A DNA stretch of 64,000 nucleotides from Cyanophora paradoxa CCMP329 (taxonomy: Eukaryota > Plantae > Glaucophyta), in assembly GCA_004431415.1 (NCBI GenBank), contig QPMI01000451.1, forward strand, positions 1 through 64,000. Reading direction: 5' to 3'. Positions 17,182-61,849 of the stretch are shown here, in pieces; positions within the stretch are counted from its first letter, which is position 1, and every line of letters begins with the position of its first letter. The notes below the pieces were generated by a model. The model did no database searches, was not told where the DNA came from, and saw only the letters and a program-made list of their open reading frames with translations. A program made the position numbers and the translations under genes.

Positions 17182-17415
17182 GGGATCGTCAGATCGAAAT
17201 TAGATTCAAAACTTGAAACGCCCTCAGGGCCTGAAATTAGATTTAAAACGCCCTGAAATCGAAATCGAAAATCGCCTTTCCTGTATATATATACTCCTCT
17301 CCACCCTCAACTGCCGCCCCTGAGGGATCGTCAGATCGAAATTAGATTCAAAACTTGAAACGCCCTCAGGGCCTGAAATTAGATTTAAAACGCCCTGAAA
17401 TCGAAATCGAAAATC
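17152..17415 (+). repeat. Tandem duplication (~120 bp) of the stop codon and 3' flank of the C12orf4-like gene
   Basis: 17152-17274 repeated at 17294-17415. Confidence 0.9.
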
Positions 17416-17718
17416 ATGGCATCATGATCATATGTATATATACTGCCCGAGTGGAGCCTCGGAGCCCGGCGGCCCTCGGAGGACATCAATCGATATCATG
17501 ATCATGTTGATGACACTGTGTGACATGTACTACCGTACGCGTAGTACTTCGGTACACGTTGACCAGTCCTCTCGGCGATCTTGCCGGCAAGGAACAGGAC
17601 CGCATCAACAGAACCCTCGCAGTAACATTTCGGCCGAAGCGGCCGCGGGCGTCGTAGGCCTATCTCAGAGTTTCCCCCCCGCCCTATCTCCCCCCTCCCT
17701 CCCCCTCTTGTCCCATGG

Positions 17719-18243
17719 GTGGCGCGTCAGGCTCTCGACTGCCGCCACTACGAGTACGCTGGTCTTGCGTTTCGACTCCCTCTGCCACGCGGTCTTGATG
17801 CTTATTTTGCGCAGGTTCCGGCAGCTCATGCAGCACGCCGTCCGGCGGCACCCCAAGGACGAGGACCCGCCGTGCACGCTCCAGCTCGTCTGCGAGGCCT
17901 GGACCTCGAAGACGTGCGGGATGTGCGGCAAGATCAACTACGGGCTCGGCTCGAAGAGGGTCTTCGAGTGCCGCCCCGGGTGCGGCTTCCGGGCGGACCG
18001 CGACGGCGGCGCCGCGCGGTGCGTGTTGTGTCTATACACGCCTATACACAATCGCTGCTCCCCCCGCCTAGTCCCGACACGGCCTATCCACGGCGTAATT
18101 TTCCGTCTAGGCCTAGGGCCGGCTCGCCCTCCCAGCGCCGCCCGATCGCAATCGTAATCGTACTGATCGCACAGACCTCTCGCAGGGGCATCCTGATTCG
18201 CTACGGCACGGGCGTGGACGCGAAGCGCCTGCTCAGCTCGTAG
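17719..18243 (+). mobile_element. Fanzor2/TnpB-like nuclease C-terminal remnant with two spliceosomal introns (17754-17814, 18019-18185)
   Basis: Spliced: VARQALDCRHYEFRQLMQH...VCEAWTSKTCGMCGKINYGLGSKRVFECRPGCGFRADRDGGAARGILIRYG...*. Has the zinc ribbon and the RuvC-III DRD motif. Confidence 0.85.
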
Positions 18244-18282: not shown

Positions 18283-18383
18283 GGGCACCAGTCCCTGCGG
18301 GTTACGCTCTCACCCAAACAGCACGGGTACAGTTAAAGCGCTGTAGGTAGGAGGTCCGGCGCGCCCGTAGCGTAGAAAGAGCA
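18283..18383 (+). ncRNA. Candidate Fanzor omegaRNA scaffold/element right end (family 1)
   Basis: Starts 40 bp after the Fanzor stop. Repeated at 61749-61849 and 44753-44809, and all copies end at GAAAGAGCA. Confidence 0.55.
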
Positions 18384-18389
18384 GAGACA

Positions 18390-23323: not shown

Positions 23324-23490
23324 CATCCAGGAATCTCCTGAGGTTGCAGGAAGATGCCACGGATGGCCCATGGCCAGTGGTGCACGTGAATGCCTTCTAG
23401 CGCTTCTGTGTGACATACTTCCAAGCCGGCCCATGCAGGCAAACGGTTCTCGGCTCTCCGCTGTACACCATTGAACATTGTCCAGGTCCT
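23324..23490 (+). pseudogene. Duplicated internal fragment of the NXF1 gene, including its intron
   Basis: Near-identical to the reverse complement of 58012-58150, with a ~30-bp insertion. Confidence 0.9.
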
Positions 23491-23673
23491 AGCGATCCGA
23501 AGCGCTAGGGCAGTAGCGCGATCTGAAGCGCTAGCTAGGGCAGTACATGTACTACGGTACATGTTGTTCGACTCAGTGACTTTCGAATTTCTGTTCAGCT
23601 GTTGCTGGTTCGTTCCGAAGTTCCTAGTCGAGTGTGCTCTTGCGAAACACTTTGTATGATCATGAGTCACTGA

Positions 23674-28264: not shown

Positions 28265-29707
28265 ATTTACAGAGAGCGCGCTTGCTAGAGCGCTAGCGTG
28301 CCACCCCGATGCGAACCGCTCTGTCAAGCAGACTCAAGCTGACGCCAGGGGTACGCTGCCACGGTGGTCAGCGAGTTCGCCTCATGATCAACCGAACCCG
28401 GCCGCTGTCGACGTCGACGTACGCGTACGCGTAGAGATAGACAATCCTCAAGATGAGCCGAGTCGGACCGCCGCTAGCGATATATCGAATGAAGCTACTA
28501 GTACTAGGCTACGTATACGTAAATATACGTCACGGCGTATACGTACTACTACTACGGTATACTTCAAGGCTTAATTAGCGCTTCGAATTCGCTAAGCGGG
28601 AAAAGATAATTTCGTAACGGATTGTAAATATAAGCAATTCTTCTTACGCGCGAAATGCTAATTTGAATTCGAAGACTCTGAGATTAAGTTTCCGTGCGTA
28701 AGCTACACTACAGCCGTAAACTCCGCGTTGCGTTTGTGATGCGGTATACGTAGCCCCGGGGGGCCTGCGCCCGAGCAGGCTCAGCTACAGCGGCTGCGGC
28801 GCTGGCCGCTGGGAGCTCCGGGGCTACGCGGTTTTCTTCCGAGGCTCAGGATCAGTGCGATTTCCCGTGCGTAAGCTACAAGTAAGCTACACGCAATTGC
28901 AAGCTCCGAGCTCCGAGGCTCGAGGCCAAGCTTCCTCGGGACCGACTTTGCCTCCAGGCCTAGGGCCGTTTCCCGCAGTCCGACGGTCGCCAGCTACGTA
29001 GTGAATATTAGCTAGCGCTGGGGGAAAAAACTATGATGGCCAAAGTATGCATATATGATGTGTTGTGTGGGTGCCGCTCACTCCGATATTCGTAGTGAAG
29101 CGGCTCCCATGGCCACCGACACTGGAAAGATAGGCCCTCCGGATCCTAATTATAAGCCCTTGAAGCTCGTAGCTTACGTATCGCGGGAGTTAATCCGGCC
29201 AAAGTCTTGTGGGGGCGGGGGTCGTCTTGGGGCCTGGGGCCTGAGATGTATTCAGCCTGCGGTGGGCGCCGGTGCTTGCACAAGCGTATACGTACACGAA
29301 GCCAGCACTCAGTGTGACTCAGAGGAGCAGAGCGTCGATATCGATATTGGGATCATTGGATGTATATATATATACCTCAGCAGACGGGAGCCCGGCGGCG
29401 CCAGCGCCGGCGCGGCCCGGCCCGGGATCGGATCCCTACTAGGCTAGTTCCGAAGTCCCTTATATAAGTGGGCTCTTGCCAAAGGTCGAGCTCTCGAGCT
29501 TGCCCTTTCGCTGTCAATGCATTGTTAACCCTCGGAGGTTGCATGAGTCACGCGTCACGGAGGTTTGGGTGTTATATTGCGATCAGGGACGCGCTGCACT
29601 AACAGGGGGGCTAGCACTAACTGGCGCGGGGAGTAACACGTCCGACGTACCCCTCGGGGCCTCCGGCCTCTAACTATGCTCAGGCTCTAACTGAATGCTG
29701 TACCCCC

Positions 29708-30430
29708 TCACTGGCCGAAGTGCGACGGTCCCCACTCGAGGTCGGGGTCGGGCCTTGGGGGCCTCCGGCGGGGTACGATGCTCCCGCTTGCCAGCTCCAT
29801 GTACTCCCCCACGGGGTTGTCTTCGTCTGCGAGGTCCTTATAGTTGCCCTTTACGAGATCCGCTGCCGCTTTGCGCCAGCGAACGGCCACGTTGTACGTG
29901 TTGTCGATGATGTTCTGCACCGTACCCTCCATGGGTATTAGGGATAGCCTATAGTCGAGGTTTCTCTTACGCAGGTTCAATTCCCTTTCGTAGTACTCCA
30001 CTGCGTCTGGGAGGGCCCTGAGCTCCACCGCGTGCTCGCCCGGGTCCGACGAGCTAATGAGCCCGGAGCGCTGCAGTGCGTTCACAGCCGCCCGCAACAC
30101 GATTTTGCCTACCCCCCGCATCGAATCCCTCTGCTCGGGCGTCCCGTATCCCCCCTGCGGCCCGTAATCGTTGTAGTAGCTTTCTATTTCGACGGTGGCT
30201 GGCTTATTGCCGACCTGAGGCTTGACAAAGCCGTACACCCATGCCATGGCGTCATTGTCCGCTGAGCGGGCTTTCTTGGAAGGGGGCGGCAGCACTTCGA
30301 TTTTGAACTCCCTGGTCCGTCGGTTGACGAGTGTTTTTAGATTGAGGGGGAGGCGCGTATCCCCGAATTTATCAGGAAAGAGGCGGTGTAGCTTAAACCA
30401 CGCTTCCTGATCACCGTAGGTGTACGACAT
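29708..30430 (-). CDS. GNAT-like acetyltransferase, intronless (240 aa)
   Basis: MRGVGKIVLRAAV (acetyl-CoA motif A) and VELRALPDAVEYYERELNL (motif B-like). Confidence 0.6.
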   Translation of the reverse strand: MSYTYGDQEAWFKLHRLFPDKFGDTRLPLNLKTLVNRRTREFKIEVLPPPSKKARSADNDAMAWVYGFVKPQVGNKPATVEIESYYNDYGPQGGYGTPEQRDSMRGVGKIVLRAAVNALQRSGLISSSDPGEHAVELRALPDAVEYYERELNLRKRNLDYRLSLIPMEGTVQNIIDNTYNVAVRWRKAAADLVKGNYKDLADEDNPVGEYMELASGSIVPRRRPPRPDPDLEWGPSHFGQ

Positions 30431-30467
30431 TTGCTCGCGGCTCGCTGAGAATTTATACCTGTACCCC

Positions 30468-31238
30468 CTACTCGCGGTCGGGGTACCTGTCGCCGGGCAT
30501 CAGCCTCGCGCGCTTGCGCAGCTCCGCCTCCCCGGGTAGCCAGTTCTTCGGGTCGTTGCTCCACTCCTCCCATTCGCGTATGTCCCGTCTGACGTCACGC
30601 GGGGCGGGGGCGTTTATCGGTGGGGCGGACGGGGCTGGCAGGGCCTGGCGCGGGGGGTTGAGGCCCCTGTTCCACGAGTACTCGGGGTACTCTTCCCATC
30701 CCAGGGGTACCAGATTCATCGGAATTGGCTCAACTTCGAATTGGGGCTTTTTGACGTGATAATCATAGTTTGTGACATACGCCGTCACAGCCGAGCGCAA
30801 GCGCGAGAGGTCGCGCAAATTTACGTCGTCCCATTGCGAGTCCCTTGCCTTCGCGTACCACTCGAGGATTTGCATGCGAATGTGGTCCGGGAGGGTCGAG
30901 AGTATGCTGAGCTTGGAGCCCAGGGCGAACCAGATGCGCTTGAACTCGTCGATAATCCTGCCCTCGTCGTGGCTCCGAAAGTAATGGGCACCGCCAGCGT
31001 TGTGATGCGAATCGAGCCACCCTGCCTGGGCCAGCTCTAGCACCGGCCAGGGTTGGCGCTGTCGATTCGGTCGCGAGGCCCGCTCAACCACCCAGCGTCT
31101 AAGGTCCTTGACCTGATCTATGAACTGTGCGCCGCCACTACCCTTGTCTGGTTGGTTCACTGTCGATTGTGCTTCGGGCCTTCGGGTCCTTCGCCTTTCG
31201 TCAAAACCGCACAACCGGCTTGGGCGTGTCTTATACAT
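30468..31238 (-). CDS. Hypothetical intronless protein (256 aa, Trp-rich)
   Basis: Clean ORF with protein-like composition, 37 bp from the next gene. Confidence 0.7.
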   Translation of the reverse strand: MYKTRPSRLCGFDERRRTRRPEAQSTVNQPDKGSGGAQFIDQVKDLRRWVVERASRPNRQRQPWPVLELAQAGWLDSHHNAGGAHYFRSHDEGRIIDEFKRIWFALGSKLSILSTLPDHIRMQILEWYAKARDSQWDDVNLRDLSRLRSAVTAYVTNYDYHVKKPQFEVEPIPMNLVPLGWEEYPEYSWNRGLNPPRQALPAPSAPPINAPAPRDVRRDIREWEEWSNDPKNWLPGEAELRKRARLMPGDRYPDRE

Positions 31239-31352
31239 ACTCTTCTTCTTCTTCTTCGAACTGTGCGATCACGTCCTTGGGCGCTTCCTCTGCATCCGAC
31301 ATTTGTAATTGCACACATCAAGAAATTCTAAACGCTACTGCGAGGCTAAGCT

Positions 31353-32042
31353 ATGCATACCGATACAGATTGCGAGACTTTGCAACAGGGGAGCGCGGCG
31401 TGGCACGCGGCGCGCCGTGAAAAACTAACTGCATCTAATTTTGCGGCTGCGTGCGGCATAAACCCCTGGAAATCCAGGGCCCGCCTGTGGGCGGAGCTAA
31501 GCGGGATAGCGGAGGAAAACAACTTTGACAACCCTGCCCTAACCTATGGGCATGATTATGAGCCCTTCGCGGTCTCTATCTACAAGGCACTGAACGATAA
31601 CGTTGACATTAAACATACTGGACTGCACGAACATAAAGAAATGCCGTTCCTCGCCGGTAGCCCCGACGGACTTATAGGAAATGATAGAATTTTAGAGGTG
31701 AAATGCCCGTACAAGGGCGAACTTTATGATAGAGTTCCTACTTATTACATGCCGCAGTTACAAGGACTTCTGGACATAACGGGCCGCGAGTGGGCCGAAC
31801 TTTTTTGCTTCACTCCTCTGCGCGTGCAAACGTGGTACGTCAGGCGCGACGAGAGGTACATCGAGCTCATGAGGAAGTGCTTACATCTATTTTGGATGCA
31901 CGTCAAGGAGGGCACGCCGCCCGAGCCCTACAGCGATCGAATGAAGTTAGAGAACCTCAGCGAGGAGCAGGCGGCGCTGCGCGAGTTTAAGTCGTACGCC
32001 CTCCTCTCAGAGTCTAGGCAGACTACTTCTGTCCCAGGCTAG
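31353..32042 (+). CDS. YqaJ/lambda-exonuclease-family viral recombinase
   Basis: QGSAAWHAARREKLTAS, GHDYE, LAGSPDGL, LEVKCPY, YMPQLQG motifs all intact. Confidence 0.95.
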   Translation: MHTDTDCETLQQGSAAWHAARREKLTASNFAAACGINPWKSRARLWAELSGIAEENNFDNPALTYGHDYEPFAVSIYKALNDNVDIKHTGLHEHKEMPFLAGSPDGLIGNDRILEVKCPYKGELYDRVPTYYMPQLQGLLDITGREWAELFCFTPLRVQTWYVRRDERYIELMRKCLHLFWMHVKEGTPPEPYSDRMKLENLSEEQAALREFKSYALLSESRQTTSVPG

Positions 32043-32551
32043 GTCTTTGGAATCTTAATATAAATTTTCCGGGACCCGGGACAGGCCTTGTCGGACATGG
32101 CAATGTCAGAACCTTCCCGATCATCTAGATCTATAATGATTCTAGGGAGGGTCCAGACACATCTCTTGTGCGGACCACTTCTGTCCCAGGTCTTTGGAAT
32201 CTTAATATAAATTTTCCAGGGACCCGGGACAGGCCTCGTCGAACAAACCTCTTCATGGGCCAAGATTTCGTGCATGCATCGGCCGCAGCTCATGCGAAAA
32301 ATCATGTCTGATCCGATCCTGATCATGACGTCCTGCAAATTGAAGAATCGTCTGACCGGGAGTGTCCCGGGTCCCTGGAAATTTTATATTAAGATTCCAG
32401 AGACCCGGGACAGATCTACCTAGAGGGAACATCCAAAATGCTGTACCCCTCCCACCCCGTGATCTTTCGAATTCAATCTGATGGGCCGACCTGAGTGACG
32501 GTGTCCTGGGTCCCCGGAAAGTTTATATTAAGATTCCAAGGACCTGGGACA
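32030..32551. repeat. Four 50-bp imperfect palindromes: 32030-32083 and 32182-32231 forward; 32363-32412 and 32502-32551 inverted
   Basis: Consensus TGTCCCAGGTCTTTGGAA-TCTTAATATAAATT-TTCCAGGGACCCGGGACA. Confidence 0.95.
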
Positions 32552-32617
32552 AGAGCAATGCATTTTCGCACGACGTTGACATAGCCTGATCACGAGAGAA
32601 AAATGTACCCCGATCTA

Positions 32618-35600
32618 TCAAATCCGCCGATGGAGCAGCGAGTAGCAGTCGCAGAACAGATCTTTCACCTCCAAGTAATCCGGCCCCACGCCAGCCCAGC
32701 GCTGCCTTGCTTGGCGCTCTGCAACATCTTCGAGAGTGTCTTCCTTGACCCACGTGATGCACTTGCGCTTGCGAGAGCCGGCGCCCTCCTGCCCTTCTCG
32801 GGTCCGTTTTTCCCGGACCGGGCCCGTCTCACCCCCATGTACTTTTCGAGCAGGTACTGAATCACCCGCCACGACTGCTGCGCAAGCTTGGCCTTCTCAT
32901 TGTCCGATGCATCGAGTTTAGGGGCCCGCTCGTCCAGACTCTGCAGCACCGCGTAAGCCTCCCGGCCCTCCGGTGATGCGAGCGCCGCGTAGGCTTCGTC
33001 CGACCAAAGCATACAGCTGTCGCCGGCCAGCTTCTCGTACCCCGGCCCAAAAGTCGCTTGAAAAGCTCCGCAACCTTCGAGACCCTGTGGTACTCAGTAG
33101 ACGAGGCGATCTCGGCCATGTCGCCGCCGCGCTTCAGCACAAGGATGATCCGCGACATCAGCGGGATCGAGTAGAATGACTTCCACAGCCAGGCCACGTC
33201 GCTCTCGGTCAGCGCGCTTGCGTCCTTGGCCAGGAACGCAGCGGTCGCTAGGCGCGCGAGTGCAGCAACCTTCTCCACGTCGACCTTAGCAAGCGAATCG
33301 CGCGAATGCCACCAGGAGTCCAGCAGCATGTACAGTTCGGTGATGTCCAGGGGCGGAGACTCGAGTACGTACTTGATCTCGCGCTGCCGCTGCTCCTTCT
33401 CCTCTTTCGGCCCCTTGTTTCCCTGATCCTCCGTGACCCGCACGTTCATCACGGCGCAGGTCGACAGCAGCCGCAGCCGCGCGGCCACGGCGAGGCGCCG
33501 CGTCGGCATGCCGGCCCGCCGACTCCCGTGATGGCTCGCCTTCAAGTCCAGATAGCGCTGCGTGTCTGCAGTGCTAGCTCTCTCATCATCGCTCTCACGC
33601 CAGTGCGCGGTCGCCTCGCCCACGCTGACGGAGGGCGCGGACGCGCGGCTCTTGCGCACGGCGACGAGCAGGTGCTCTCCGCCGGGCGGCTCGCCGCGCC
33701 TGCGCAGCTTTCTCACTCGGAACAGCAGCTGCACGATGTCGTCGGCCTCTAGCTGCGCGGGTTCGGCCTGGAAAACGCCGTAGATCTTGTCAAAGTGCGC
33801 TTCCGGAAAGTCCACGCCCGCCCCGAGCGCGGACGTCGCGATGAGCACGTCGCAGGCCTTGTACGCGCCCTCCTCCGAGACGTCGATCGACACTACGCGG
33901 ACCGGGCCCTCGTTCGTGAAGCGCACGCTCTTCTCCTTCGCCTGCCCAACGATGAGCCCAATTGTGAACGGTGCGCCGCTGCCGTCCTCGGGCCCTGCCT
34001 CGAGCTGAGTCACGTACTGAGCGCCGCCCAGGCTGAGCTGCTCCAGCGCCTGCTTCGAAATCTTGTCTGCTAGCTCATTCGCCTTGGCCGGCGTCTCCGC
34101 GATGATCATGGCCCGCGAGCGCCCAGGTCGGCACTGCACCATGATGTCCTTCTCGACGTGCGCCGGGCTGTCTGACACGCGCATCTTCCAGTCGCAGGTC
34201 CGGCGCGAGTTGTGCAGGAGCCCAAGGCGCGCCCCGCGCTCCAGCGCGGACTCCGCGAGGTACGCGAGATCGACCGGCCGGACGAAGCCGTCCATCGCCA
34301 CGATGCGCGAGGCCTTCATCACGTTTCGCATTAGCTGCACGCAGCGCGCGTTTCGGGCATTGACCGCACGCCCATGTGCAGGCCGGCGGGTTCGAGGGTG
34401 CCGCTCGAAGTGAGGTGCTTCGTGAGGGAGGAGAGCTCGTCCAGCACGATCATCAGCGGCGCAGTCGACCAGCCCGCCCAGTCCTCAAGTACCTTGTGCA
34501 GCGAGTCGATCGTGATGACGACGCACCTGCACTTCGGATGGCGGTAGCCCCACTTGCCGTGCGTCCCATTTGAGCTCTCCGGCGGCTTCTGAATGTCCAT
34601 GTACAGCACGGCGTCCTCAGGCAGGCCCACGTCATCCAGGCGGCGCTTCAGGTCGCGGGAGAAGGCGCGGCGGCAGGTCAAGAGGATCACGCGCCAGCCC
34701 CCTCGAGGGCTGGCTTCAGGTACGTCTCGATGAGGGCCTGCGTCTTCCCCGTGTTGAGGCCCGAGCAGATGACGTCGACCTGGGCGGCCCCGGCTCCAGC
34801 GGACCGAACGTGGAGGTGAGCAGCCCTGGATCGCGCGTCAGGTAGTCCGTATCCACGACCTTCACGCAGTGCGGTGTCAGGCCCGTCGATTCGAGTGCGA
34901 TCAGGAGCGACGGGAGGGCCACGTCGAGCGCCACGGGCTGGGACGGGTCCGTCACGTAAGACGCCGCCGTCTCGCTGCAGCTCCCGTCTCCAGCTCCCCC
35001 TCCTGCTCCACCTCGACACCGTGCGCCCGAATCGCGATTCTGAGGGCCGGCGATCCTGGCTGATCGCTCATCTTCAGGGTGATTGTTCCGTCGGGCTCGA
35101 CTGCAATGTCTTGAACGCGGCGGGGGTCATTCAGGCTGATCTCAGTGCGCAACGCCGCCCCGCCCGCCAGATCTCGTCCCTCACCAGCTTGTTCTCGCGC
35201 AGGAGGCTCAGGAACCGATCGAAGTCCGGGAGCGGAGCCTGGGCGTCGCCCGTCAAGCTCAGCGGGGGTGGGGCGGCTCCTTGCGGGGGAGGAGCTCCTG
35301 GCGCCGCAGTCCCGAGCAAGCCCCCGAGCTGCGGCGCCCTGCGGCCCTGCGCCACCCCCTGCGCCGATCCCTGCGTCGGCCCCTGCAGGACGTAGGCTCC
35401 TGTGTCGTCCCCCCCGAGCTCCAGGCCGCTAGATGTCCCCAGCAGCCAGGTCGCAAAGGCGCAGGCCTCCGGGCTCTGCAGGACGTAGGCAGCCTTGAGC
35501 CCGTTGTGCGATGTTCGAGAGAAAGTGAGGCCTCCGAAGCTCTCCGCGCATGCACGGGCGGCCGCGGTGCTCGTCTCGTCTTCCGCGTCGGAGAAGTGCT

Positions 35601-35780
35601 TGGACATGATGTGCGGCGGGTGAAAGATACAGAAGACCATTCCGAGATCAGCGCTGCAGACCTTCTGGACGCAGACGAGGGGAAGCGAGTGAAGAAAAGC
35701 TCTTCTTGCGGGCTCAGGTCCACGGGAGTTACCCCCGGCAGACGGGAGAGTAGACTGTCGGAGCACGTCGAGGTGGCCAT
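32618..35780 (-). pseudogene. UL9-like replication origin-binding SF2 helicase, split by about six or more frameshifts
   Basis: GLNTGKT, LTCRRAFSRDL, ITIDSLHKV, IVLDELSS, RIVAMDG, ATSALGAGVDF..HFDKIY and VQLLFRVRKL match UL9-family motifs in order. Confidence 0.85.
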
Positions 35781-35902
35781 GCTCTCGGGTTAGGCCTGCT
35801 GTTTCGTGTTAGGCTTGGAAAATTTTCAGTGGCACCGGCCGGAAACTGCACACCTTGAGAACTCGAACTCGAACTCCAAGGCTCGGTGAATTGGCGCTAG
35901 CT

Positions 35903-36205
35903 GCACTGTCGACGTCGACTGTCGGACCGTCGACGTCGGACTTCGGATGTCTCGTCTTCTGTCCCAGGTCTTTGGAATCTTAATATAAATTTTCCAGGGA
36001 CCCGGGACACTCTGGTCTGACGACGCTGCAGCTCGAAGCGCTCAACTGGGTCCGCACTGTCGACGTCGACTGTCGGACCGTCGACGTCGGACTTCGGATG
36101 TCTCGTCTTCTGTCCCAGGTCTTTGGAATCTTAATATAAATTTTCCAGGGACCCGGGACACTCTGGTCTGACGACGCTGCAGCTCGAAGCGCTCAACTGG
36201 GTCCG
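35903..36205. repeat. Tandem ~151-bp duplication, each unit carrying the 50-bp palindrome (35960-36009, 36111-36160)
   Basis: Direct sequence identity between the two units and with the 32.0-32.5 kb palindromes. Confidence 0.95.
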
Positions 36206-37219
36206 GTTGACGGCACACAGGCTATCAGGGTGCCAGGCCTAGCCTAGTACGTAGGCTGACCGTCGGACCAGTACTGGCGGTTCAGTTGAAGCCGAGTACT
36301 ACTAGCGCTAGCTATAGCGCCAGCGCTAGCTGTAGGCTAGTACTAGTACTAGATCGAGAGACGGTACGGCGCGCCACAGCTAGCGAGCTCGCGCTCGCTC
36401 GCCTTTGCGCTGAAGCTTAGAAAATTTTGGGCTCACGCGGTCGTTCCACGTGTTCTGTCCGGACAACCTGTACCCAGCTGTCCAGCCAAGTAGTCAGAGC
36501 TCTCCAATCCTGCGGCGCTTGGGCCCCGTGCTTCTCAGAGCACTTGATGGAGGCCAGCGTGTGCGTTCTGTGCTCTCGGGGAGCCGCCGCTTCGTTCCCG
36601 CCGATGCAGAAGTGCGTCTCGGTCGGCGACCCCTCTCTCCGCGGAGCGGCTAGCTGGAGAGCTCTCCCGATGCCGCGCGCTTACACTGCGGTGCGCAGGC
36701 TCGGTTGCTGTGGCCGGCAACCTTCGAGAGCTCGATGGCACCCAAGCTGAACCACCTCGCCGCATCGCGGAGGTGCTGGCTCCCTCTTTCGCAGCTCTTT
36801 CGCTTACACTTACACTTTCGCTAGACCGTGCCGCACAGCCTCGCGCTCATTTCCCCACGTTCGCAGAACTTCGGCGTCGGCGCAGGTTCCGGGATCTGCG
36901 ACCGCGCCTCCCGCAGCTCGAGCCGGCGTCTGCGGCGACCCGCGCATGCATCTAGATCCTATTCTGAAACCCGTGCGTCGATCCGGGTCCCGGGCTCGCG
37001 TTCCTGCGCCTCCCGGACCCTCACACTGCTCCTGTTTGCATCCTAGCTAAGACCTTCCTCGCCCGCAGCCGGTCTCGTCCTCGGCACATTGTGAGCGGCA
37101 TCAGTGGAGCTGGAGTTCCGCACTTTATGCAGGCCCGTGCGCCCTTTCCCGCCCCGCCCCGCCCAGCCCCGCCCCGCCTCGCGTGCGCTATAGCTAGCTA
37201 ACCCTGTCGCGCGCGCCGC

Positions 37220-38149
37220 AGAGGGTTCGTAGCCGGAGGGCTCGCAGGCCGCGGCCCGGACACCTCCGCCGCCGTCGGCGCCGACATCGAGAACGGCCGG
37301 CTGGACGAGACCCTCGCCGGCTTCGGCTCCTGGTGCCGCCCCTACTCCTACAAGCTCGGCGGCGTCTGGCAGACCTACATCCGCGGCATCGTCCCAAGGC
37401 CCCGCTCTCCCTCGGCGAGAGCCAGCCGGCGCTGGAGGCGATCGCGATCCCCGTCGCCCAGTTCAAGGACCCGGCGCCCGACGTCGGGCCCTTCCTCGTC
37501 AAGCCCCACACCAAGGGCAAGGGCAAGCGCACCCGCAACTCGGCGCCGGCCTTCCTCCCGCCCCAGCCCCCGCCACGGCCCCCAGCAGCGCCCCGGCCAG
37601 CAGCGCATCGACGAGATGCTGCCGCGCCAGGTCCGGCCCCGCGTACCCCCCGCCTTCCCTGTACCTCCCTCCCCTCGCCCCGTTCCTGATCCAAGGGCAG
37701 GGTACCTCGGCCTCCCCCGCGAGCGCCGACGGCCCCAGCCCCGTCCCCGGCCCCGGCCACGTCCTCTCCGCGATCCAGGGCTTCGGGCCCAGCAGGAGGC
37801 CGAGCGGCAGGCGCTGGCGGCGCGCCAGGCGCGCGAGGCGGAGGCGCGGCGCCAGGGCCGCCGGGCCCAGCGCCTCCAGCGCACCCTCGCCTTCCGCGCC
37901 GAGCTGGAGGCGGGCTTCCGCGCGGATCAGATCGCCGGCGCGGAGGCCTCGGAGCGCTGGCGGGCGTTCGAGGCGGAGACGGCGGGGCTGGCGAAGGGCC
38001 TCGGCTACAGCTACCGGCGCGTGCCCGTGCCCAAGGACTACGCGTCGGCCGCGGCGCTGGAGGCCTCGCGGGCGGAGATCGACGCGGCGGAGGACGTGGT
38101 GGCGGAGACGGAGGCCCACGCCGAGACCTTCCGCCACCTCCACCACTGA
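37220..38149 (+). CDS. Hypothetical Pro-rich/coiled-coil protein, frameshifted or spliced; start uncertain
   Basis: Coding-like segments in successive frames ending ...AETFRHLHH*. Confidence 0.5.
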   Translation, partial: RGFVAGGLAGRGPDTSAAVGADIENGRLDETLAGFGSWCRPYSYKLGGVWQTYIRGIVPRPRSPSARASRRWRRSRSPSPSSRTRRPTSGPSSSSPTPRARASAPATRRRPSSRPSPRHGPQQRPGQQRIDEMLPRQVRPRVPPAFPVPPSPRPVPDPRAGYLGLPRERRRPQPRPRPRPRPLRDPGLRAQQEAERQALAARQAREAEARRQGRRAQRLQRTLAFRAELEAGFRADQIAGAEASERWRAFEAETAGLAKGLGYSYRRVPVPKDYASAAALEASRAEIDAAEDVVAETEAHAETFRHLHH

Positions 38150-38198
38150 GCTCTCCGAGGCGGTATTTTTTCTCAACCCCTTCCAATTCGGTCCCGCG

Positions 38199-38390
38199 AT
38201 GGCCTTCGCTGACAGCTACCCACAGCACTACACCCTTGGAGCCCTCGCCGCGACCCTCACCTGGCTCCTCGGCGGCACCCCCACCGCCTCGGCCGTCATA
38301 GGCGTGGGGTTCGGGTACGCCGCCAAGAGCCTCTACGCCCCCGGCTCCGTCTCGATGGCGACGGCCGGCATGCGCCCCGCCGGGCGCTAA
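38199..38390 (+). CDS. Small hydrophobic protein (63 aa)
   Basis: Two Gly/Ala-rich hydrophobic stretches; coding-like codon usage. Confidence 0.55.
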   Translation: MAFADSYPQHYTLGALAATLTWLLGGTPTASAVIGVGFGYAAKSLYAPGSVSMATAGMRPAGR

Positions 38391-38500
38391 GTTAACTCTC
38401 CCTTTTCAAATGTTCTATTCCCCCCTTTCCCTTTTCCAAGTTGCTCAAGTCCGTCGACGTTCCCTTTTAAATTTTCTTCATTCACGTTACACGTCTGAAC

Positions 38501-38986
38501 ATGCCGAACGCCGTAGAGAAGCTGTTGTGTACGGTGTTCAAATCGGACTCGCGCTGCAGCAAGATCGGCGAGGCTGCCAAGGGCGGGGGCGGGGCGAAGG
38601 TCGAGGGGCCTAAGCTAAGGGGCGCGGACCCGGCGCCGCCGGCGCTGAAGTCGATTAAGGCCGCGGGCAAGGGCCGCGGCGTCGGGCCCCTGCCCCTCGT
38701 GGCGATCGCCCCCGGCCAGAGGGAGGCGGCGCACGCGGCGACGGCGGCGCTGGCCTCGCAGCAGCAGAGGGAGGGGGCGCCGCGCCTGAGCGCCGGCATC
38801 TGGTCGCAGCCTGCGCCCGCGCGCGAGTACGGCGTCAGCGCCTTCTTCGACGGCGCGAACGAGCTGAGCCGCCAGGAGATCTGGGCCTGGGAGGCGCGGC
38901 GCGCGGTCGACGGGCACCTGCCGCTGCTTGTGGCGCTCGGCGGCTCGCTCCTGATGGTCTGGTACCTGCGCGGCCTCGCCATTTAG
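38501..38986 (+). CDS. Hypothetical protein with C-terminal membrane anchor (161 aa)
   Basis: Ends LPLLVALGGSLLMVWYLRGLAI. Confidence 0.6.
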   Translation: MPNAVEKLLCTVFKSDSRCSKIGEAAKGGGGAKVEGPKLRGADPAPPALKSIKAAGKGRGVGPLPLVAIAPGQREAAHAATAALASQQQREGAPRLSAGIWSQPAPAREYGVSAFFDGANELSRQEIWAWEARRAVDGHLPLLVALGGSLLMVWYLRGLAI

Positions 38987-39012
38987 ATAGATTTTCGAAG
39001 CGCTAGCTAAAG

Positions 39013-39288
39013 ATGGGCTGGGTGGACGCCGTGCTCACCAAGGTCTTCGGCCCGAAGAGCGCGCAGCCGCCGCCGAGCTTCAACCTGGCCGCGGCGATCA
39101 GCACGACGATCGAGCGCAAGAACAACGAGCTCATCCTAAAGAACGACGGCAAGCTTCCCTGGGCCGACGTGGCCGCGGGCGCGCTCGGCAGCACGCTGAC
39201 GGGAATCGATCGGACGGGCGCCGCGGGCGTGAAGGTCGGGCAGGCGTGCAGATTTCCGTACCCCTCTACATGTCTGCCCGGTGGTTAG
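39013..39288 (+). CDS. Hypothetical protein (91 aa, MG start)
   Basis: 26 bp after the previous stop; coding-like codon usage. Confidence 0.5.
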   Translation: MGWVDAVLTKVFGPKSAQPPPSFNLAAAISTTIERKNNELILKNDGKLPWADVAAGALGSTLTGIDRTGAAGVKVGQACRFPYPSTCLPGG

Positions 39289-39353
39289 GGACTTGGCGCG
39301 GCAAACTCTCAGATCCAGAGAAAGTCTGGGCCCAGACCCTGAGTCTAACTCTT

Positions 39354-39395
39354 CCCAAGTCCCAAGTCCCAAGTCCCAAGTCCCAAGTCCCAAGT
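39354..39395. repeat. (CCCAAGT)6 telomere-like array
   Basis: Perfect heptamer array flanked by an 11-bp inverted repeat (39290-39300 / 39404-39414). Confidence 0.95.
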
Positions 39396-39472
39396 CCCAG
39401 GATCGCGCCAAGTCATAACTGAATAGTCGGCCAATTTTTACAAGTATGTACAATGGAATGACGCAATACTAT

Positions 39473-40504
39473 TTACAGCATCTCAAAGTCAGAGTCATCG
39501 TCATCGGAAACCAACTCAATGAGGCCCTCGGGCGCCGACTTAAGGGGAATGCGGGGAAGGGCCTGCGCTGCCTGCACCAAGTCCTGCCGCTCGCGCTCGC
39601 GCTGCGCCGCCAAGGCCGCTGCCGCCTCTGCCTCGCGCTGCTGCTGAGCCTCGATGCGCGCCTTGAGCTCGGCTGCCTCCTTCTGCTTGCGCTCGGCGAT
39701 CCGCGCCTTGTTGATCTGGTACTGGACAAGGCGCTCGTGGCGCCGCTTGCGCTCCAACTCCTTGCGGAGCTCGTTGCAGAGGACGCGCTTCTCAATGGTC
39801 TTGACGTGCTGAGTCAGGCGCTCGCTGTAGTGTGACGTCACACGAGAACGGGCAATGCCAGCGCCGAGCTTCAAGTCCTTGGCGTTTTCCTTGGCGGGGT
39901 CCTTGACGCGCTCGGAGTTGTCGGTGAATGACGTAGTCTCCATGAACTTCTTCTTGACGATTGACTTGGTCTTGATAATGCGGCGCTTGCGAGTCGGGTT
40001 TTCGTTGTCGCCTTCAGAGTCAGAAGACGACTCAGAGTCGTATGGAATCGGCACGTCAAAGTCGATGAAGTCGTTGATGTCAGACTCGGCGTCAGAGGCC
40101 TCGGACTTGGCGTCATCGGCGGGCTGAGGGGCGGGCTCGGCGACGGGCTGAGGGGCAGGCTCGGGGGCAGATGACGACGATGACGGAGGGGGGTAATTCG
40201 TGAAGGCTTGAGGGGGGTTGGCCCAGGCGAGTGTCTCGGCGGCAGACTCGGCTTGAAGCTGGAGCATTTCGGGAGTTGGGACGAATGACGGCGCGGGCTT
40301 GGGCTCGGGATTCTTGACGTCATCCTTGCGGAAAAGGCCAAGGTAGCAGACGCCGTTCAAGCCGTGGTAGGAGCCGTAGTTGTACCCCAGTGCCTTCGCG
40401 CGACGCTCCATGGCAGGGGTAGGCCAAAGTCCGGACTTGTGCAGATTGCGAGCCTTGGCAAAGTCCTTGGCAAGCTCAGAGGGAATCTCAGAGACAGGCG
40501 ACAT
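39473..40504 (-). CDS. Hypothetical acidic/coiled-coil protein (~343 aa)
   Basis: Long clean ORF. The ATG at 40504 follows a polypyrimidine tract and CAG acceptor, so the ORF-track extension to 40636 is probably UTR/intron. Confidence 0.7.
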   Translation of the reverse strand: MSPVSEIPSELAKDFAKARNLHKSGLWPTPAMERRAKALGYNYGSYHGLNGVCYLGLFRKDDVKNPEPKPAPSFVPTPEMLQLQAESAAETLAWANPPQAFTNYPPPSSSSSAPEPAPQPVAEPAPQPADDAKSEASDAESDINDFIDFDVPIPYDSESSSDSEGDNENPTRKRRIIKTKSIVKKKFMETTSFTDNSERVKDPAKENAKDLKLGAGIARSRVTSHYSERLTQHVKTIEKRVLCNELRKELERKRRHERLVQYQINKARIAERKQKEAAELKARIEAQQQREAEAAAALAAQRERERQDLVQAAQALPRIPLKSAPEGLIELVSDDDDSDFEML

Positions 40505-40950
40505 CTGCGCAAAGGGAAAAGAGATCAGCAAAGGCAAAACGTGAGGTGACTGAGAGAGCGGACTTGTGAAAATTCGGAGAGGCAGAGTTTGCTTGGGCTG
40601 AGAGAAGGCGGCGAACCCGTTGTAAGAGTGAGCCAAAATGGCGGCGGACCGCGGTTTTGTGGGCGAATTTTTTCCTGGGCTAGTTTGCAGCAGAAACGTT
40701 GCGAACTGGCCTGAAAAAAGCCAAATTTGGCCTTTTCTTACGTTTCTCCCCCCTTCCTTCGCTGCAAACTGGACCTAAAAAAATGTTGGGCCGAAGGAAA
40801 TCTCACGGAAAACGTCCCTTCTCCCCCCTGTTTTGCTGCAAACTGGACCGCAAAAAAGTTGGACCGAAGCCCCCCTACCCCGCTGAGCCGGCCTGACGGA
40901 AATCGCCCGAGTGCGTCCGCCGAAGGTCGAGTCTCGGGGTTGGGTGTACC

Positions 40951-41370
40951 CTACATCCCGGGGCTGTACCCCTCCCTCTCGATGAGCCCTACCCCGGTGC
41001 GAAGGGCTGTCCGCTCGTCCCGTGCCTCCCTGCGATGTCTCATGCGCCGTCCCCGTCGAACAATAGCCCTGTCTTCATGTGGTACGTGTCGATGATTGTT
41101 AGGGTTGTCGTAGCCTGGCCCCACCAGCCTCACGAAATTTTCGCGTATGGCCTCGGGGAGACTTTGGAAACGGTTCGTCGCGTGGAACTCAATCCATTCA
41201 TTGAATCGACGCGGATATTGACGGACGATTTCGAGGACGCCCTGTGTGTTGGGCACTGGTCTTATTCCGGGGATGTCATGTCCTGTGATGTGCCAACGCC
41301 AGAACTCGCGCAACCTCTCGAATGCCATATTCAACTCAAAGGGGAAATCGTAATAGGGCTCGTCTGCCAT
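40951..41370 (-). CDS. Hypothetical protein (~139 aa, MADEPYYDFPF...)
   Basis: Protein-like intronless ORF downstream of the heptamer array. Confidence 0.6.
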   Translation of the reverse strand: MADEPYYDFPFELNMAFERLREFWRWHITGHDIPGIRPVPNTQGVLEIVRQYPRRFNEWIEFHATNRFQSLPEAIRENFVRLVGPGYDNPNNHRHVPHEDRAIVRRGRRMRHRREARDERTALRTGVGLIEREGYSPGM

Positions 41371-41428
41371 TTTTCTCCCCTTCCGAAAATTTCCCCGCTT
41401 TTGAGTCCAGACTCTGACTCCGACTCTT

Positions 41429-41477
41429 CCCAAGTCCCAAGTCCCAAGTCCCAAGTCCCAAGTCCCAAGTCCCAAGT
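41429..41477. repeat. (CCCAAGT)7 telomere-like array
   Basis: Perfect array sharing a ~22-bp upstream flank with the 39354 array. Confidence 0.95.
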
Positions 41478-43065: not shown

Positions 43066-44727
43066 TTGGAGCTAGTTTGGACCTCCTTTTATTCCAATTT
43101 GGAGCTAGTTTGGAGCTTGATAGAACTAGCTCTTCTATTTGGACAACGCCACATAAATCGAATCGAAGGCAAATATAATCGAATCCGAGCGAAGCTTATG
43201 CTCTGTTTAAAGCGACGTTGAATCTGAAGCATCTGAATTTGATTTACATCTATTTGACTTCGCCAACAGCGCAACTTTCCCACTCCGCCGAGCTCGGACG
43301 ATGAGCCCGATGTGATCTGTCAGGTGAGCTTAAGTTTAGGTGCGCAGATGGCTTGGGCGACTTTAATTTGGGTGCGCAGATGAATGGGCAACACATTGAC
43401 ACAAGAGATTACAATGACCAGGTCAATATCAGTATCTTCAAAGCAAATCAAACTTAATGTCGAATTTTCGATACCAGTACGTGGAGTGTGTGACGCCAGC
43501 GCACCCCGAGGAAGGCGACGTTGAAATCACGGTCTTCTTGCCAAAGCGCAACATCACGACGAACTCGTGGAACTTCCGATATATAGCTGGCATTTTCGAT
43601 TCCGGAAGTTCCTTCTTGATCATTGCTTACACACTTAACAGCCCCTGTTATAGAGAGTGTCGAACCAGACGCATTGCAGTTCAATGGCGACGCCTTGGTC
43701 ACCGTCCTTGGTCGGGTTCGAGCTGCCCCCCGTTTTCCCAACCCCGCCCAACCAAAACAGAGCATCTGAATCAAAGTCCGAGCCTATCCAGCTAAATCTT
43801 CTGACCAACTTAAACCTGCATGACCAAACCTAATTCGATATGAAAATCAACGTCAGACCCCACTAAACCAAATTGAAATCATCTAAAATGCTGGCAGAAC
43901 TTTAAAAACAATCGCGAGATCCGTTGCCGTTTCTCGGCAAAAAGAAATCAATATGAAAGCGATGCAACGTGGATCTCCTCGCAAAAAGTGGTGCGTGTTG
44001 ACCTGCCATGCAGGCAACGCGGAATCAAACGTCCACAGACATGCCCACTCCCACGGAGCGTGGTGCCCATGGAGCGGGTTGTGGTGGAAATCAGTGCTGA
44101 GACGGAGGCGAGTGGCTCGAATTGGGTTGGTGGCGCTCGGAACATGATCAGATTTTCGGACCGTGTGTTGCCCCGCCACTTTCCCTCTCCACCTGCTCAG
44201 ACCTGGCTTACCCCCTCCACAGCATGTAACGACAATTACCGGACTTGCAGAGAGTGCGTCGTGCACGGATGCGGGTTCTGCTATTTTGATGAGGAATGCC
44301 GGACTCCTAGCCCCAACGGGGGTTTTCTTGAGTGGTCCAAGTGCAATGCACAGGTGTGATATCATTCTTTGTTTCAAATTTGGTTTGTGCACAAACAATC
44401 TTGCAGGAGTGGGTCGCCCCACGCAACCAGGGAGACTGTGGCCGGTTCGAAAATCGGCCCCGGGGGTACAATTCGGGTGCCTTCGCACTGGCTGTGATCC
44501 TGGCCATCGGCGTCTTTGCTGGGGGAGCTGGATGTTTCATCATGCGCCGCCGCAACGCTGGCAGCGGCCCAGTGCTGCCCATCACCCGCCCGGCATTCGG
44601 GAGTTCTGAAGGGGGAGTCCCTTCTGCGCGACAAGAAACACGACCACTGATGGCAGACCGGGCTGGTGGAAACTGGGACGAGAACTGGGACGAGAACTGG
44701 GACGACCCCCGGCGCCCACGATCGTGA
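41909..44727 (+). CDS. Type I membrane protein: signal peptide, Glu/Lys-rich repeats, IPT/TIG, PSI-like domain, TM
   Basis: MRSAGAALALLALVF; IENITPGIGSTVGGQKITVYG..VECVTPAH; CRECVVHGCGFC; AFALAVILAIGVFAGGAGCFIMRRR. Confidence 0.75.
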
Positions 44728-44752
44728 TCATGATCACTGCCATTCGCAATCG

Positions 44753-44809
44753 TGCTCTTTCTAAGCGACGGGCGCGCCGGACCTCCTACCTACAGCGCTT
44801 TAACTGTAC
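44753..44809 (-). repeat. Truncated family-1 repeat copy
   Basis: Matches the 3' half of 18283-18383. Confidence 0.85.
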
Positions 44810-54263: not shown

Positions 54264-54552
54264 TTCACTTACGTAAGCTTAGCTTCAATTTTTGAAATCG
54301 AAAATACAGAGAGATTTGGTCACGAACTTAATCGCAAGTCCGAGCTACAAGTGTGGGATGTTCAGTGTGGCGCTGCTGCCGTGGGCCCAGTCCCCCCAGC
54401 GCGCACCAGGCCAGTGGGGCCCTGTGTTGCCCCGTGAGAGAGTAATTCGCCTCCCCACGGGCACTGGCTACAGGCATCACGACTCCAGGGCGGCGAGGTC
54501 GTCTCGGGCCACTGCAGCTGCTTCCAGGGGAGGCAGCAAGTGACCAACCACA

Positions 54553-54900
54553 GTCCCTTCTGCGAGACAAGAAACCCGACCACTGATGGCGGACCAGGAC
54601 GGGAACTGGGACGAGAACTGGGACGACCCTTGGCGCTCACGATCGTGATCATGATCACTGCCATTCGCAATCGGCCCCCGCCCCCCGCCCCCCGCCCCCC
54701 CCCCCCCCCGGGCCCACTGACACGTAAATTATTAAAATTTCGAATTCACGTTGTATTGCATGCATGCAAGGTTTAATTAATGAAGGACATAATATTCCAA
54801 GGAAAGGAATAATATTGAAGATGTTCCATCGTTGCATTCAACGTAATTATAAACACGTGGTGTAAGCTAGCGGCTAGCTAGCTGCATCTCCGGACTACGC
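54553..54900 (+). repeat. Diverged duplicate of the 3' end and flank of the TIG/PSI gene (44618-45090), lacking the 44753-44945 insert
   Basis: Shared actgggacgagaactgggacgaccc...cattcgcaatcg and cacgtaaa...cataatattcca...gttccatcgttgcattca blocks. Confidence 0.85.
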
Positions 54901-61504: not shown

Positions 61505-61728
61505 TTTTTTTGGGGAAGGACCCCCTTCCCCTTCCCCCACTTAGGGGTGTTCGGGTGCCCACCCTAGGCCAAAATGAAATGTCCCGACCTCTCAAAAACC
61601 GGATTTTCTCGCCGGATCCTAGCAAGGCATGTTTCCAGGAGCCCGAAAACGTGTACCGGGAGTTTCCGGTCCCGTCGGGTCGATCAGGAATGGGCAATAA
61701 CACGTTTTCGAAAAATGCGATCTAGCGC
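61505..61728 (-). repeat. ~230-bp dispersed repeat, copy 2
   Basis: Reverse complement of 803-1030. Confidence 0.9.
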
Positions 61729-61748
61729 TTACTGTTTGTGCAGTACTA

Positions 61749-61849
61749 TGCTCTTTCTAAGCTACGGGCGCGGCCGGACCTCCTACCTCAGCGCTTTAAC
61801 TGTACCCGTGCTGTTTGGGTGAGAGCGTAACCCGCAGGGACTGGTGCCC
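61749..61849 (-). repeat. Full-length orphan family-1 repeat copy
   Basis: Near-identical to 18283-18383; no Fanzor ORF recognised upstream. Confidence 0.9.

Follow-up and report, generated by a model that had tools for sequence, protein, structure and literature searches.

A multi-copy element of Cyanophora paradoxa with a UL9-type helicase gene and palindromic candidate origins

We analysed a stretch of 64,000 nucleotides from the glaucophyte alga Cyanophora paradoxa CCMP329 (contig QPMI01000451.1, positions 1 to 64,000; hereafter the window). Eukaryotic genes with many introns (RPN1, Ala- and Cys-tRNA ligase domains) are present in the window, together with a multi-copy, intronless, virus-like element. 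Within this element, six copies of a palindromic unit of about 50 bp bracket a gene for a superfamily 2 (SF2) helicase of the UL9 type, the origin-binding protein that HSV-1 (herpes simplex virus 1) encodes. The first of the units overlaps the end of a nuclease gene of the YqaJ family. We see about an even chance that this multi-copy, multi-gene stretch is part of a virus-derived integrated replicon in which the palindromes are origins for the helicase. The central features are as follows.

32031-32084, plus strand: palindromic unit 1; left arm disrupted, with a 5-nt insertion and a 1-nt deletion; overlaps the YqaJ stop codon
32182-32231, plus strand: palindromic unit 2; arms match at 15/18 positions; same sequence as units 5 and 6
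32363-32412, minus strand: palindromic unit 3; arms 17/18
32502-32551, minus strand: palindromic unit 4; arms 14/18
32621-35780, minus strand: UL9-type SF2 helicase gene, about 1,050 aa, in nine frame pieces (eight frame changes in the assembly)
35903-36204, plus strand: exact 151-bp tandem duplication that carries units 5 and 6
35960-36009, plus strand: palindromic unit 5; arms 15/18; within the duplication
36111-36160, plus strand: palindromic unit 6; arms 15/18; within the duplication

The helicase and the palindromic units

Read on the minus strand from 35780 to 32621, the helicase gene, the largest of the element, encodes N-terminal domains without a known family, then Walker A, motif Ia, the DE box, motif III and motifs V-VI, and finally a helical tail that forms the C-terminal region. 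SF2 motifs I-VI occur in order, and P0050, a gene model that is 53% identical to the helicase, carries all of them, together with the N-terminal domain, in a single frame. An initial annotation of this DNA described the protein as UL9-like, and profile searches agree. Relatives exceed the 20-bit cut-off of Pfam PF02399 (Herpes_ori_bp), with 29.7 bits for P0010 and 22.5 for P0050, while the window's own fragment (17.2) and P0049 (18.2) stay below it. HSV-1 UL9 also comes first in the PDB, where the best four of five matches to P0050 are the origin-binding protein from HSV-1 (E 0.009), over motifs I/Ia and V/VI. In the Atlas, P0019 adjoins PF02399 clusters (0.98 and 0.96), and 25% of the members of the top cluster carry PF02399. 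The best-scoring family model is CyRepA1 (NF042913), with E-values of 1e-15 to 3e-6 and 26.5-57.6 bits against a cut-off of 200. To judge by these sequence matches, the motor of the helicase is of the UL9 type, and the DNA-binding part is putative.

The N-terminal domain gave no family match in profile scans and none that was usable in the Atlas. As to the motifs of archaeo-eukaryotic primases (AEPs), no DxD or His is conserved between the N-terminal domains of P0051 and P0050. What we take to be a resemblance to HUH Rep motif 2 received no support from a PDB profile search. A single-sequence fold of P0019 reached a predicted local distance difference test (pLDDT) value of 35, and a fold search with this model was uninformative. 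A full HMMER scan returned eight matches, among them P0052, a chance Ig-repeat match.

The frame breaks in the gene are very likely long-read indel errors of the assembly. Short-read contigs from three DNA runs match the window without substitutions over 32202-33679 and about 34420-35985, and contain 2 and 8 extra bases, respectively. At all five breaks tested, gene models on other contigs read through: near 34815 and 34700 (P0010, of another subfamily), 34355 (two models), 33055 (four) and 32790 (three). The first frame break is read through by P0051. A published C. paradoxa assembly used PacBio reads (PMC6704402). Against assembly errors, P0049, which comes from another contig, likewise steps around a number of these places, so some breaks are common within the set of gene models. 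Because the breaks look like assembly errors, the gene is probably intact and would not need the frameshift repair that the initial annotation foresaw.

The six units lie where they had been annotated, in the order >> << helicase >>, and units 3-4 and 5-6 are mutually inverted around the gene. They are indeed absent elsewhere in the window: a degenerate core pattern with 3 mismatches allowed has 12 matches, which are the six sites on both strands, and 0 in 100 shuffles. Each arm contains two GGGAC-like boxes, 7 bp apart, which are arranged in inverted orientation around a 14-bp A/T core. Twelve core bases, TCTTAATATAAA, are invariant in all six units and include ATATAAA; ranked by A/T content, the cores take the first six places among the 22-bp windows in 29461-39250. 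The spacing, annotated as about 140-180 bp, is 151, 181, 139 and 151 bp from start to start, and the likeness said to extend some 12 bp beyond the palindrome is found past the right arm. The annotated arm matching of 15-17 of 18 positions applies to units 2, 3, 5 and 6 (15, 17, 15 and 15), but not to unit 4 (14) or to the disrupted unit 1.

The arm mismatches of units 2-6 are all transitions, without compensation in any case. Read on the oriented strand, three of the mismatched positions give G-U and two give A-C, which favours neither strand. Folded as single-stranded DNA, unit 1 has a z-score of -1.1; the values for units 2-5 are -4.4, -7.2, -2.5 and -4.4. The sole RNA family match, mir-9243 (27.7 bits against a cut-off of 83), was rejected as a chance hairpin match. 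Because units 5 and 6 both lie within the exact 151-bp duplication, they are not independent. Contigs of runs X7 and X8 run through the start of the 151-bp repeat and those of X1 break there, which suggests that the duplication, and so the full set of six units, is carried by some copies only. A second palindrome, 29 bp long and G+C-rich, occurs just upstream of units 5 and 6 (35910-35938 and 36061-36089); its folding z-score of -1.3 is not above shuffles.

Copies, genes and transcripts of the element

The units and the helicase gene are part of a longer repeated stretch. Its remaining features are listed here.

29461-39246, no strand assigned: multi-copy intronless virus-like element, at least 9.8 kb, about eight genes; left end inferred, right end apparently cut or interrupted
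29708-30430, minus strand: GNAT-like open reading frame (ORF), 240 aa, with a weak predicted acetyltransferase fold (pLDDT 47; best E 0.03, to GNA1; Z 5.3-6.0 over residues 28-139)
30468-31303, minus strand: ORF without an assigned function; related model P0022
31353-32042, plus strand: YqaJ/lambda-exonuclease family nuclease, 229 aa, intact (PF09588, E 2.7e-28; TIGR03033, 96 bits against a cut-off of 68)
37200-38149, plus strand: frame-broken ORF, about 320 aa, with a Pro-rich middle and a helical end; no family match; single-base gaps relative to short reads
38199-38390, plus strand: hydrophobic ORF, 63 aa, conserved in other copies
38501-38986, plus strand: ORF, 161 aa, with a hydrophobic C-terminus; cluster of 10 at 93-100% identity
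39013-39246, plus strand: ORF starting MGW; 78/78 residues are the same as the start of P0004, which then diverges

That the family has multiple copies in this protist genome is borne out by helicase models on 23 named C. paradoxa contigs. They form three subfamilies, with 5 contigs of type A (window-like), 14 of type B and 4 of type C. All 28 sequences in the cluster listing of helicase relatives are C. paradoxa accessions, as are the named members of the neighbour-gene clusters. Relative to flank contigs, window-like contigs have a depth of 3.8-6.5x and the diverged family one of 31-44x, alike in all three DNA runs, contig depth not being a strict copy number. These depths suggest about 5 near-identical and 30-45 diverged copies, and the five named contigs with window-like helicase models agree with the former figure. 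Two helicase models lie two gene numbers apart on each of three contigs, which suggests tandem copies. P0050 and, at 34% identity, P0053 are more distant relatives that may represent two further subfamilies, a fourth and a fifth, or may belong to a related alga. No relatives were found outside the host in viral contigs, metagenomes, GTDB genomes, phages or plasmids by word-based or near-exact searches, which cannot show absence, and searches with the longer proteins returned nothing.

The linkage of palindromes and helicase extends beyond this copy, in line with the initial annotation, in that short-read contigs of the window-like subfamily join both at a uniform depth of 4-6-fold. Single contigs connect units 3-4 to the helicase tail (X1, X7 and X8) and unit 5 to its head (X7 and X8), at A-family depth and with 0 substitutions; among these contigs are 32202-33679 (X1 and X8) and 34420-35985 (X7). 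Therefore, the palindromes flank the helicase in A copies generally.

On tig00020693, tig00020851 and tig00000471, neighbour genes and a helicase are no more than three gene numbers apart, and three chimeric gene models (P0004, P0010 and P0022) fuse neighbour-gene pieces to helicases. Across copies, the small ORFs are 93-100% identical and the GNAT-like ORFs, a cluster of 8, are 88-99% identical. Helicases of subfamilies A and B share 88-89% identity in the core and 67-69% in the tail; for A and C, the values are 69% and 59%. The window's 161-aa ORF shares 97-98% identity with neighbours of helicases from subfamilies A and C, against 59-69% for the helicase C-termini. Given this contrast between neighbour genes (88-99% identity) and helicase tails (59-69%), the replication module appears to have been exchanged, and we infer that helicase and palindromes may form an exchangeable module on a shared backbone. 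The left edge of the subfamily-specific stretch lies near unit 1, and depth drops from thousands to about 900 just past this unit. At 85% likeness, B-family sequence extends over the helicase core and the genes to either side, but does not clearly cover the palindromes or 35-37 kb.

Single-copy contigs stop at 29490, and depth is high from there to 39200, the limit of the depth data. Because single-copy depth ends at 29490, the repeat is taken to start near 29461 (in 31-letter words). On the right, evidence comes from gene models, as read depth reaches 39200: P0004 diverges after the 78 residues of the MGW ORF and the ORF after 39246 is a one-member cluster, so the copy appears to be cut near 39247. 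The initial annotation had taken helicase and palindromes for the whole module and the palindromes for possible ends of the element. Neither idea is supported, since the repeated unit runs from 29461 to at least 39200, comprises about eight genes and extends past the palindromes on both sides.

Within the ORF at 30468-31303, a 136-bp stretch between 10-bp direct repeats is absent in the abundant subfamily (joint 31121>31258), and some copies skip the entire ORF (joint 30470>31293). Beyond YqaJ, the palindromes and the helicase there are four more ORFs, three of them small and with hydrophobic stretches. The element ORFs encode no polymerase and no recognisable primase. The ORFs scanned, from a cut copy and against libraries that cover eukaryotic virus proteins poorly, also gave no match to a capsid, packaging ATPase, VLTF2/3, RuvC, HUH endonuclease or integrase/tyrosine recombinase. 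A search for a terminal inverted repeat, comparing the left end with 36-46 kb, gave a best score of 41 against a window background of 46, in a copy that may lack its true right end; what looked like similarity of 29461 to about 41800 did not exceed background. There is no CpG depletion. An apparent avoidance of splice sites on the coding strand (9 sense versus 22 antisense, p 0.03) vanished against synonymous-codon shuffles (8 versus 10.0 +/- 2.3; 15 versus 11.9 +/- 2.6).

One run, X15, which we guess to be RNA, contains six spliced joints in 33668-35203 and 38963-39037, with host-like introns of 54-73 nt. Five of them lie in the helicase gene and do not occur in the three DNA runs; with lengths of 54-61 nt, they read GT..AG on the plus strand, and four start with GTGCGC. 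The sixth, CT..AC, spans the ORFs at 38.5 and 39.0 kb. All six joints are antisense to the element genes (in contigs of this one run). Spliced antisense RNA of this kind might supply a silencing pathway. C. paradoxa produces small RNAs that are exonic and frequently antisense (PMC3700990), and its repeats and viral genes are methylated (PMC12344493). The present copies look stably integrated and transcribed in antisense. In the same run, one contig ends inside unit 4 and the palindrome bins are thinly covered; as contigs of a single study, these observations were not used as evidence.

Several further sequences were observed in the window. A TATATA run marks the start of the inferred left end, and a 20-bp imperfect palindrome (29481-29500) lies about 20 bp inward of that end. 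Several minus-strand ORFs carry a candidate polyadenylation signal, GGGGTAC, at or close to their 3′ ends on the coding strand (29706, 30467, 32449, 32611, 39264 and 40972). The region 36400-37140 is specific to subfamily A, lacks three bases relative to short reads and has Cys-rich frames; it may hide a small gene. Next to the element, a 2.1-kb segment (39327-41474) lies between 73-bp direct repeats (92%) that end in (TCCCAAG)7. It has two intronless minus-strand ORFs without a family match, one of 343 aa that forms a one-member cluster and one of about 139 aa, and is probably a separate insertion at the cut end of the element. A Cas12f1-like TNB (TnpB/Fanzor-type) zinc-finger fragment (17151-18157, E 9.6e-9) adjoins a 142-bp tandem duplication. 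Other dispersed repeats, 50-230 bp long and 79-99% alike, are likely remnants of small transposons (801-1027 / 61507-61728; 18283-18386 / 44753-44809 / 61746-61849; 23386-23491 / 58012-58117; 44616-44752 / 54552-54673).

Candidate origins and rival explanations

If the units are origins, the helicase would bind both inverted-box arms of a unit, and would bend and melt the A/T core. The fork would then be passed on to host nuclear enzymes, because the element encodes neither a polymerase nor any primase that could be recognised. The tandem and rearranged copies would fit a role of YqaJ in end resection, leading to recombination-dependent replication or insertion, and helicase and origins might be swapped together as a module, like plasmid rep-ori pairs. 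All of these steps are putative. A more far-reaching proposal is that of a capsid-less, integrase-less nuclear DNA element of about 10 kb that would copy itself from herpes-style origins with its own UL9-type initiator, would spread over the chromosomes through recombination driven by YqaJ and would form subfamilies with exchangeable initiator-origin pairs, like plasmid incompatibility groups. We regard this proposal as rather doubtful.

In favour of origins are the UL9-type motor, a layout that matches oriS (PMC12543377), the high A/T content of the six cores, the linkage to the helicase in subfamily A, the signs of module exchange and the probable intactness of the gene. Several observations speak against the units being origins. 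RVKNL, the DNA-recognition motif of UL9 (PMC12543377), was found by pattern search in 0 of 39 proteins, and the boxes are unlike HSV Box 1-3. Five or six origins in 10 kb are many. There is no compensatory change across 18 arm pairs in six units, a comparison of little power. Units 1-4 follow two converging genes, each in its gene's own sense, as 3′-end signals would. The depth ratios are steady over the three DNA runs, and thus give no sign of free replicating copies. In the abundant subfamily, no clear match of at least 85% covers the palindrome region, and its origins are not seen. A listed helicase model lies within three gene numbers on 2 of 8 contigs with the 161-aa ORF and on 1 of 7 with the GNAT-like ORF, in lists that are incomplete. 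Finally, the subfamily-specific stretch overruns unit 6 by about 1 kb on its right side, so the units are not exact cassette ends.

The orientation of the units could also be that of transcription signals, whether hairpins for 3′-end formation or polyadenylation, or a TATA-like core between activator boxes, with the helicase acting elsewhere. Units 1-2 lie after YqaJ and units 4-3 after the helicase, each pair in the sense of its gene, units 5-6 share the sense of the plus-strand antisense RNA, and the invariant core contains ATATAAA. Polyadenylation at palindromic hairpins is known in Mimiviridae (PMC4402537). However, of about 8 genes only 2 have a unit after them, another motif, GGGGTAC, occurs at or near the 3′ ends of the GNAT-like, 30.4-kb and helicase ORFs, and the arm mismatches favour neither strand; we consider this role unlikely. 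Recombinase sites, too, resemble arms around an asymmetric core, and the units might serve in recombination or end processing (cassette inversion or exchange, concatemer resolution or hairpin-end formation). The inverted arrangement of units 3-4 and 5-6 around the helicase would fit, as would the start of the subfamily-specific stretch at unit 1 and the chimeric model P0004, according to which the MGW ORF of another copy is on the helicase strand, unlike in the window. On the other hand, the cores of tyrosine-recombinase sites, at 6-8 bp, are shorter than the 14-bp core found here, and general library scans detected no recombinase. In addition, the flanks of each unit are not mirror images, as those of a resolved hairpin junction would be, and none of the 15 joints listed, of 39, involves a change of strand. 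We judge recombination sites to be improbable.

Another explanation retains the role of the units and differs from the integrated replicon described above in classification: the element would be a cut-down known endogenous virus, that is, a mriyavirus or polinton-like virus (PLV), and the units its ordinary origin or hr-like repeats. Among mriyaviruses, some have a UL9-like SF2 helicase and the majority a PD-(D/E)XK nuclease (10.1101/2024.02.29.582850), mriyavirus-related regions are reported to be embedded in a glaucophyte assembly (10.1101/2025.04.19.649669) and PLVs have been reported in C. paradoxa (PMC12220804). The copy appears to be cut at about 39247, and its small hydrophobic ORFs would suit a virion. 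Against this, the scanned ORFs have no capsid, ATPase, VLTF, RuvC, HUH or integrase match (in libraries poor for eukaryotic virus proteins), AEP motifs are not conserved, and the helicase models two gene numbers apart on three contigs suggest a short unit rather than one of 35-45 kb. We view such a virus as a serious possibility that nevertheless falls short of being probable. By contrast, it is very improbable that the palindrome is an independent repeat, similar to a miniature inverted-repeat transposable element, that lies near the helicase by chance. It is a short inverted repeat in a repeat-rich genome, but all six copies in 64 kb fall within 4.2 kb of one element, are joined to the helicase in all depth-supported subfamily A copies and have no shared target duplication visible in their flanks.

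To our knowledge, UL9-like helicases are widely annotated outside herpesviruses, and their target sites are not known. Here, in a cultivable freshwater alga, a small element pairs a UL9-type helicase with a defined 50-bp candidate site, and its three or four diverged subfamilies offer built-in specificity controls. If the sites are origins, they would make it possible to test whether the UL9 family had origin recognition from its ancestor on, and a replicating vector for glaucophytes could result. We found no description of the element in the literature, whose supplements, which may list these loci, were outside the scope of the search. In particular, there is no matching element in passages of PMC10120064, PMC8502044, PMC11161782, 10.64898/2026.08.29.747986 and 10.1101/2025.04.15.648976. 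The multi-copy element is real and, in this search, undescribed. Should complete copies also be without a capsid and an integrase, it would represent a type of mobile element for which this search found no description.

Relation to known systems

Herpesviruses possess a nuclease of the lambda-exonuclease family, UL12, with which the YqaJ gene near the helicase may be compared. HSV-1 UL9 and oriS (PF02399; PDB 9hgi, 9hgj, 9zgf and 9vjh) resemble the present system in that SF2 motifs I, Ia, V and VI align, the C-terminal region is helical, and oriS consists of inverted boxes around an A/T spacer (PMC12543377). Unlike UL9, the helicase studied here has some 300 extra N-terminal residues, no RVKNL, another box sequence and five to six sites beside its gene. 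It belongs to a 10-kb element in an algal nucleus, in which no polymerase, ICP8 or helicase-primase was recognised.

The primase-helicases that combine an AEP with a UL9-like helicase (mimivirus R8, African swine fever virus pF1055L, mriyavirus SF2_hel and SmDNAV) likewise have an N-terminal domain and the helicase in one chain of about 1,050 aa, and their viruses have a YqaJ/PD-(D/E)XK nuclease in the same genome (10.1101/2024.02.29.582850; 10.64898/2026.08.29.747986). The feature pair of Mriyaviricetes, a helicase (SF2 or SF3) and a PD-(D/E)XK nuclease, is present in the element. By contrast, there is no AEP match here and no DxD/His conserved between two subfamilies, no capsid or other core viral gene was seen, and the copies are chromosomal and number in the dozens.

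CyRepA1, the best-scoring family model, is a tested plasmid initiator of cyanobacteria (pSYSA Slr7037) and, as a primase-helicase Rep with a nearby origin, is similar in layout; in that system, the plasmid integrated when the Rep was lost, and the locus is subject to an antisense RNA (PMC9978351). It differs in its score, 26.5-57.6 bits against the cut-off of 200, and in that the present host is eukaryotic. Plasmids searched by tblastn gave no match.

Helitrons carry an HUH Rep fused to a PIF1-type SF1 helicase; neither a Helitron nor a PIF1 Pfam match was found among the element and helicase proteins scanned. Transpovirons and capsid-less PLV derivatives are also small, multi-gene, helicase-centred DNA elements without a recognised capsid. 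However, transpovirons (PMC11161782) and Tlr1 have pPolB-SF1 helicase fusions, whereas the present helicase is of the SF2/UL9 type and its element is chromosomal, with no terminal inverted repeat found. Membership in the herpesviruses, mriyaviruses, PLVs, transpovirons, Helitrons or CyRepA1 is not shown. Regardless of classification, we see about an even chance that the element works in the manner of UL9 with oriS or of a plasmid rep-ori pair.

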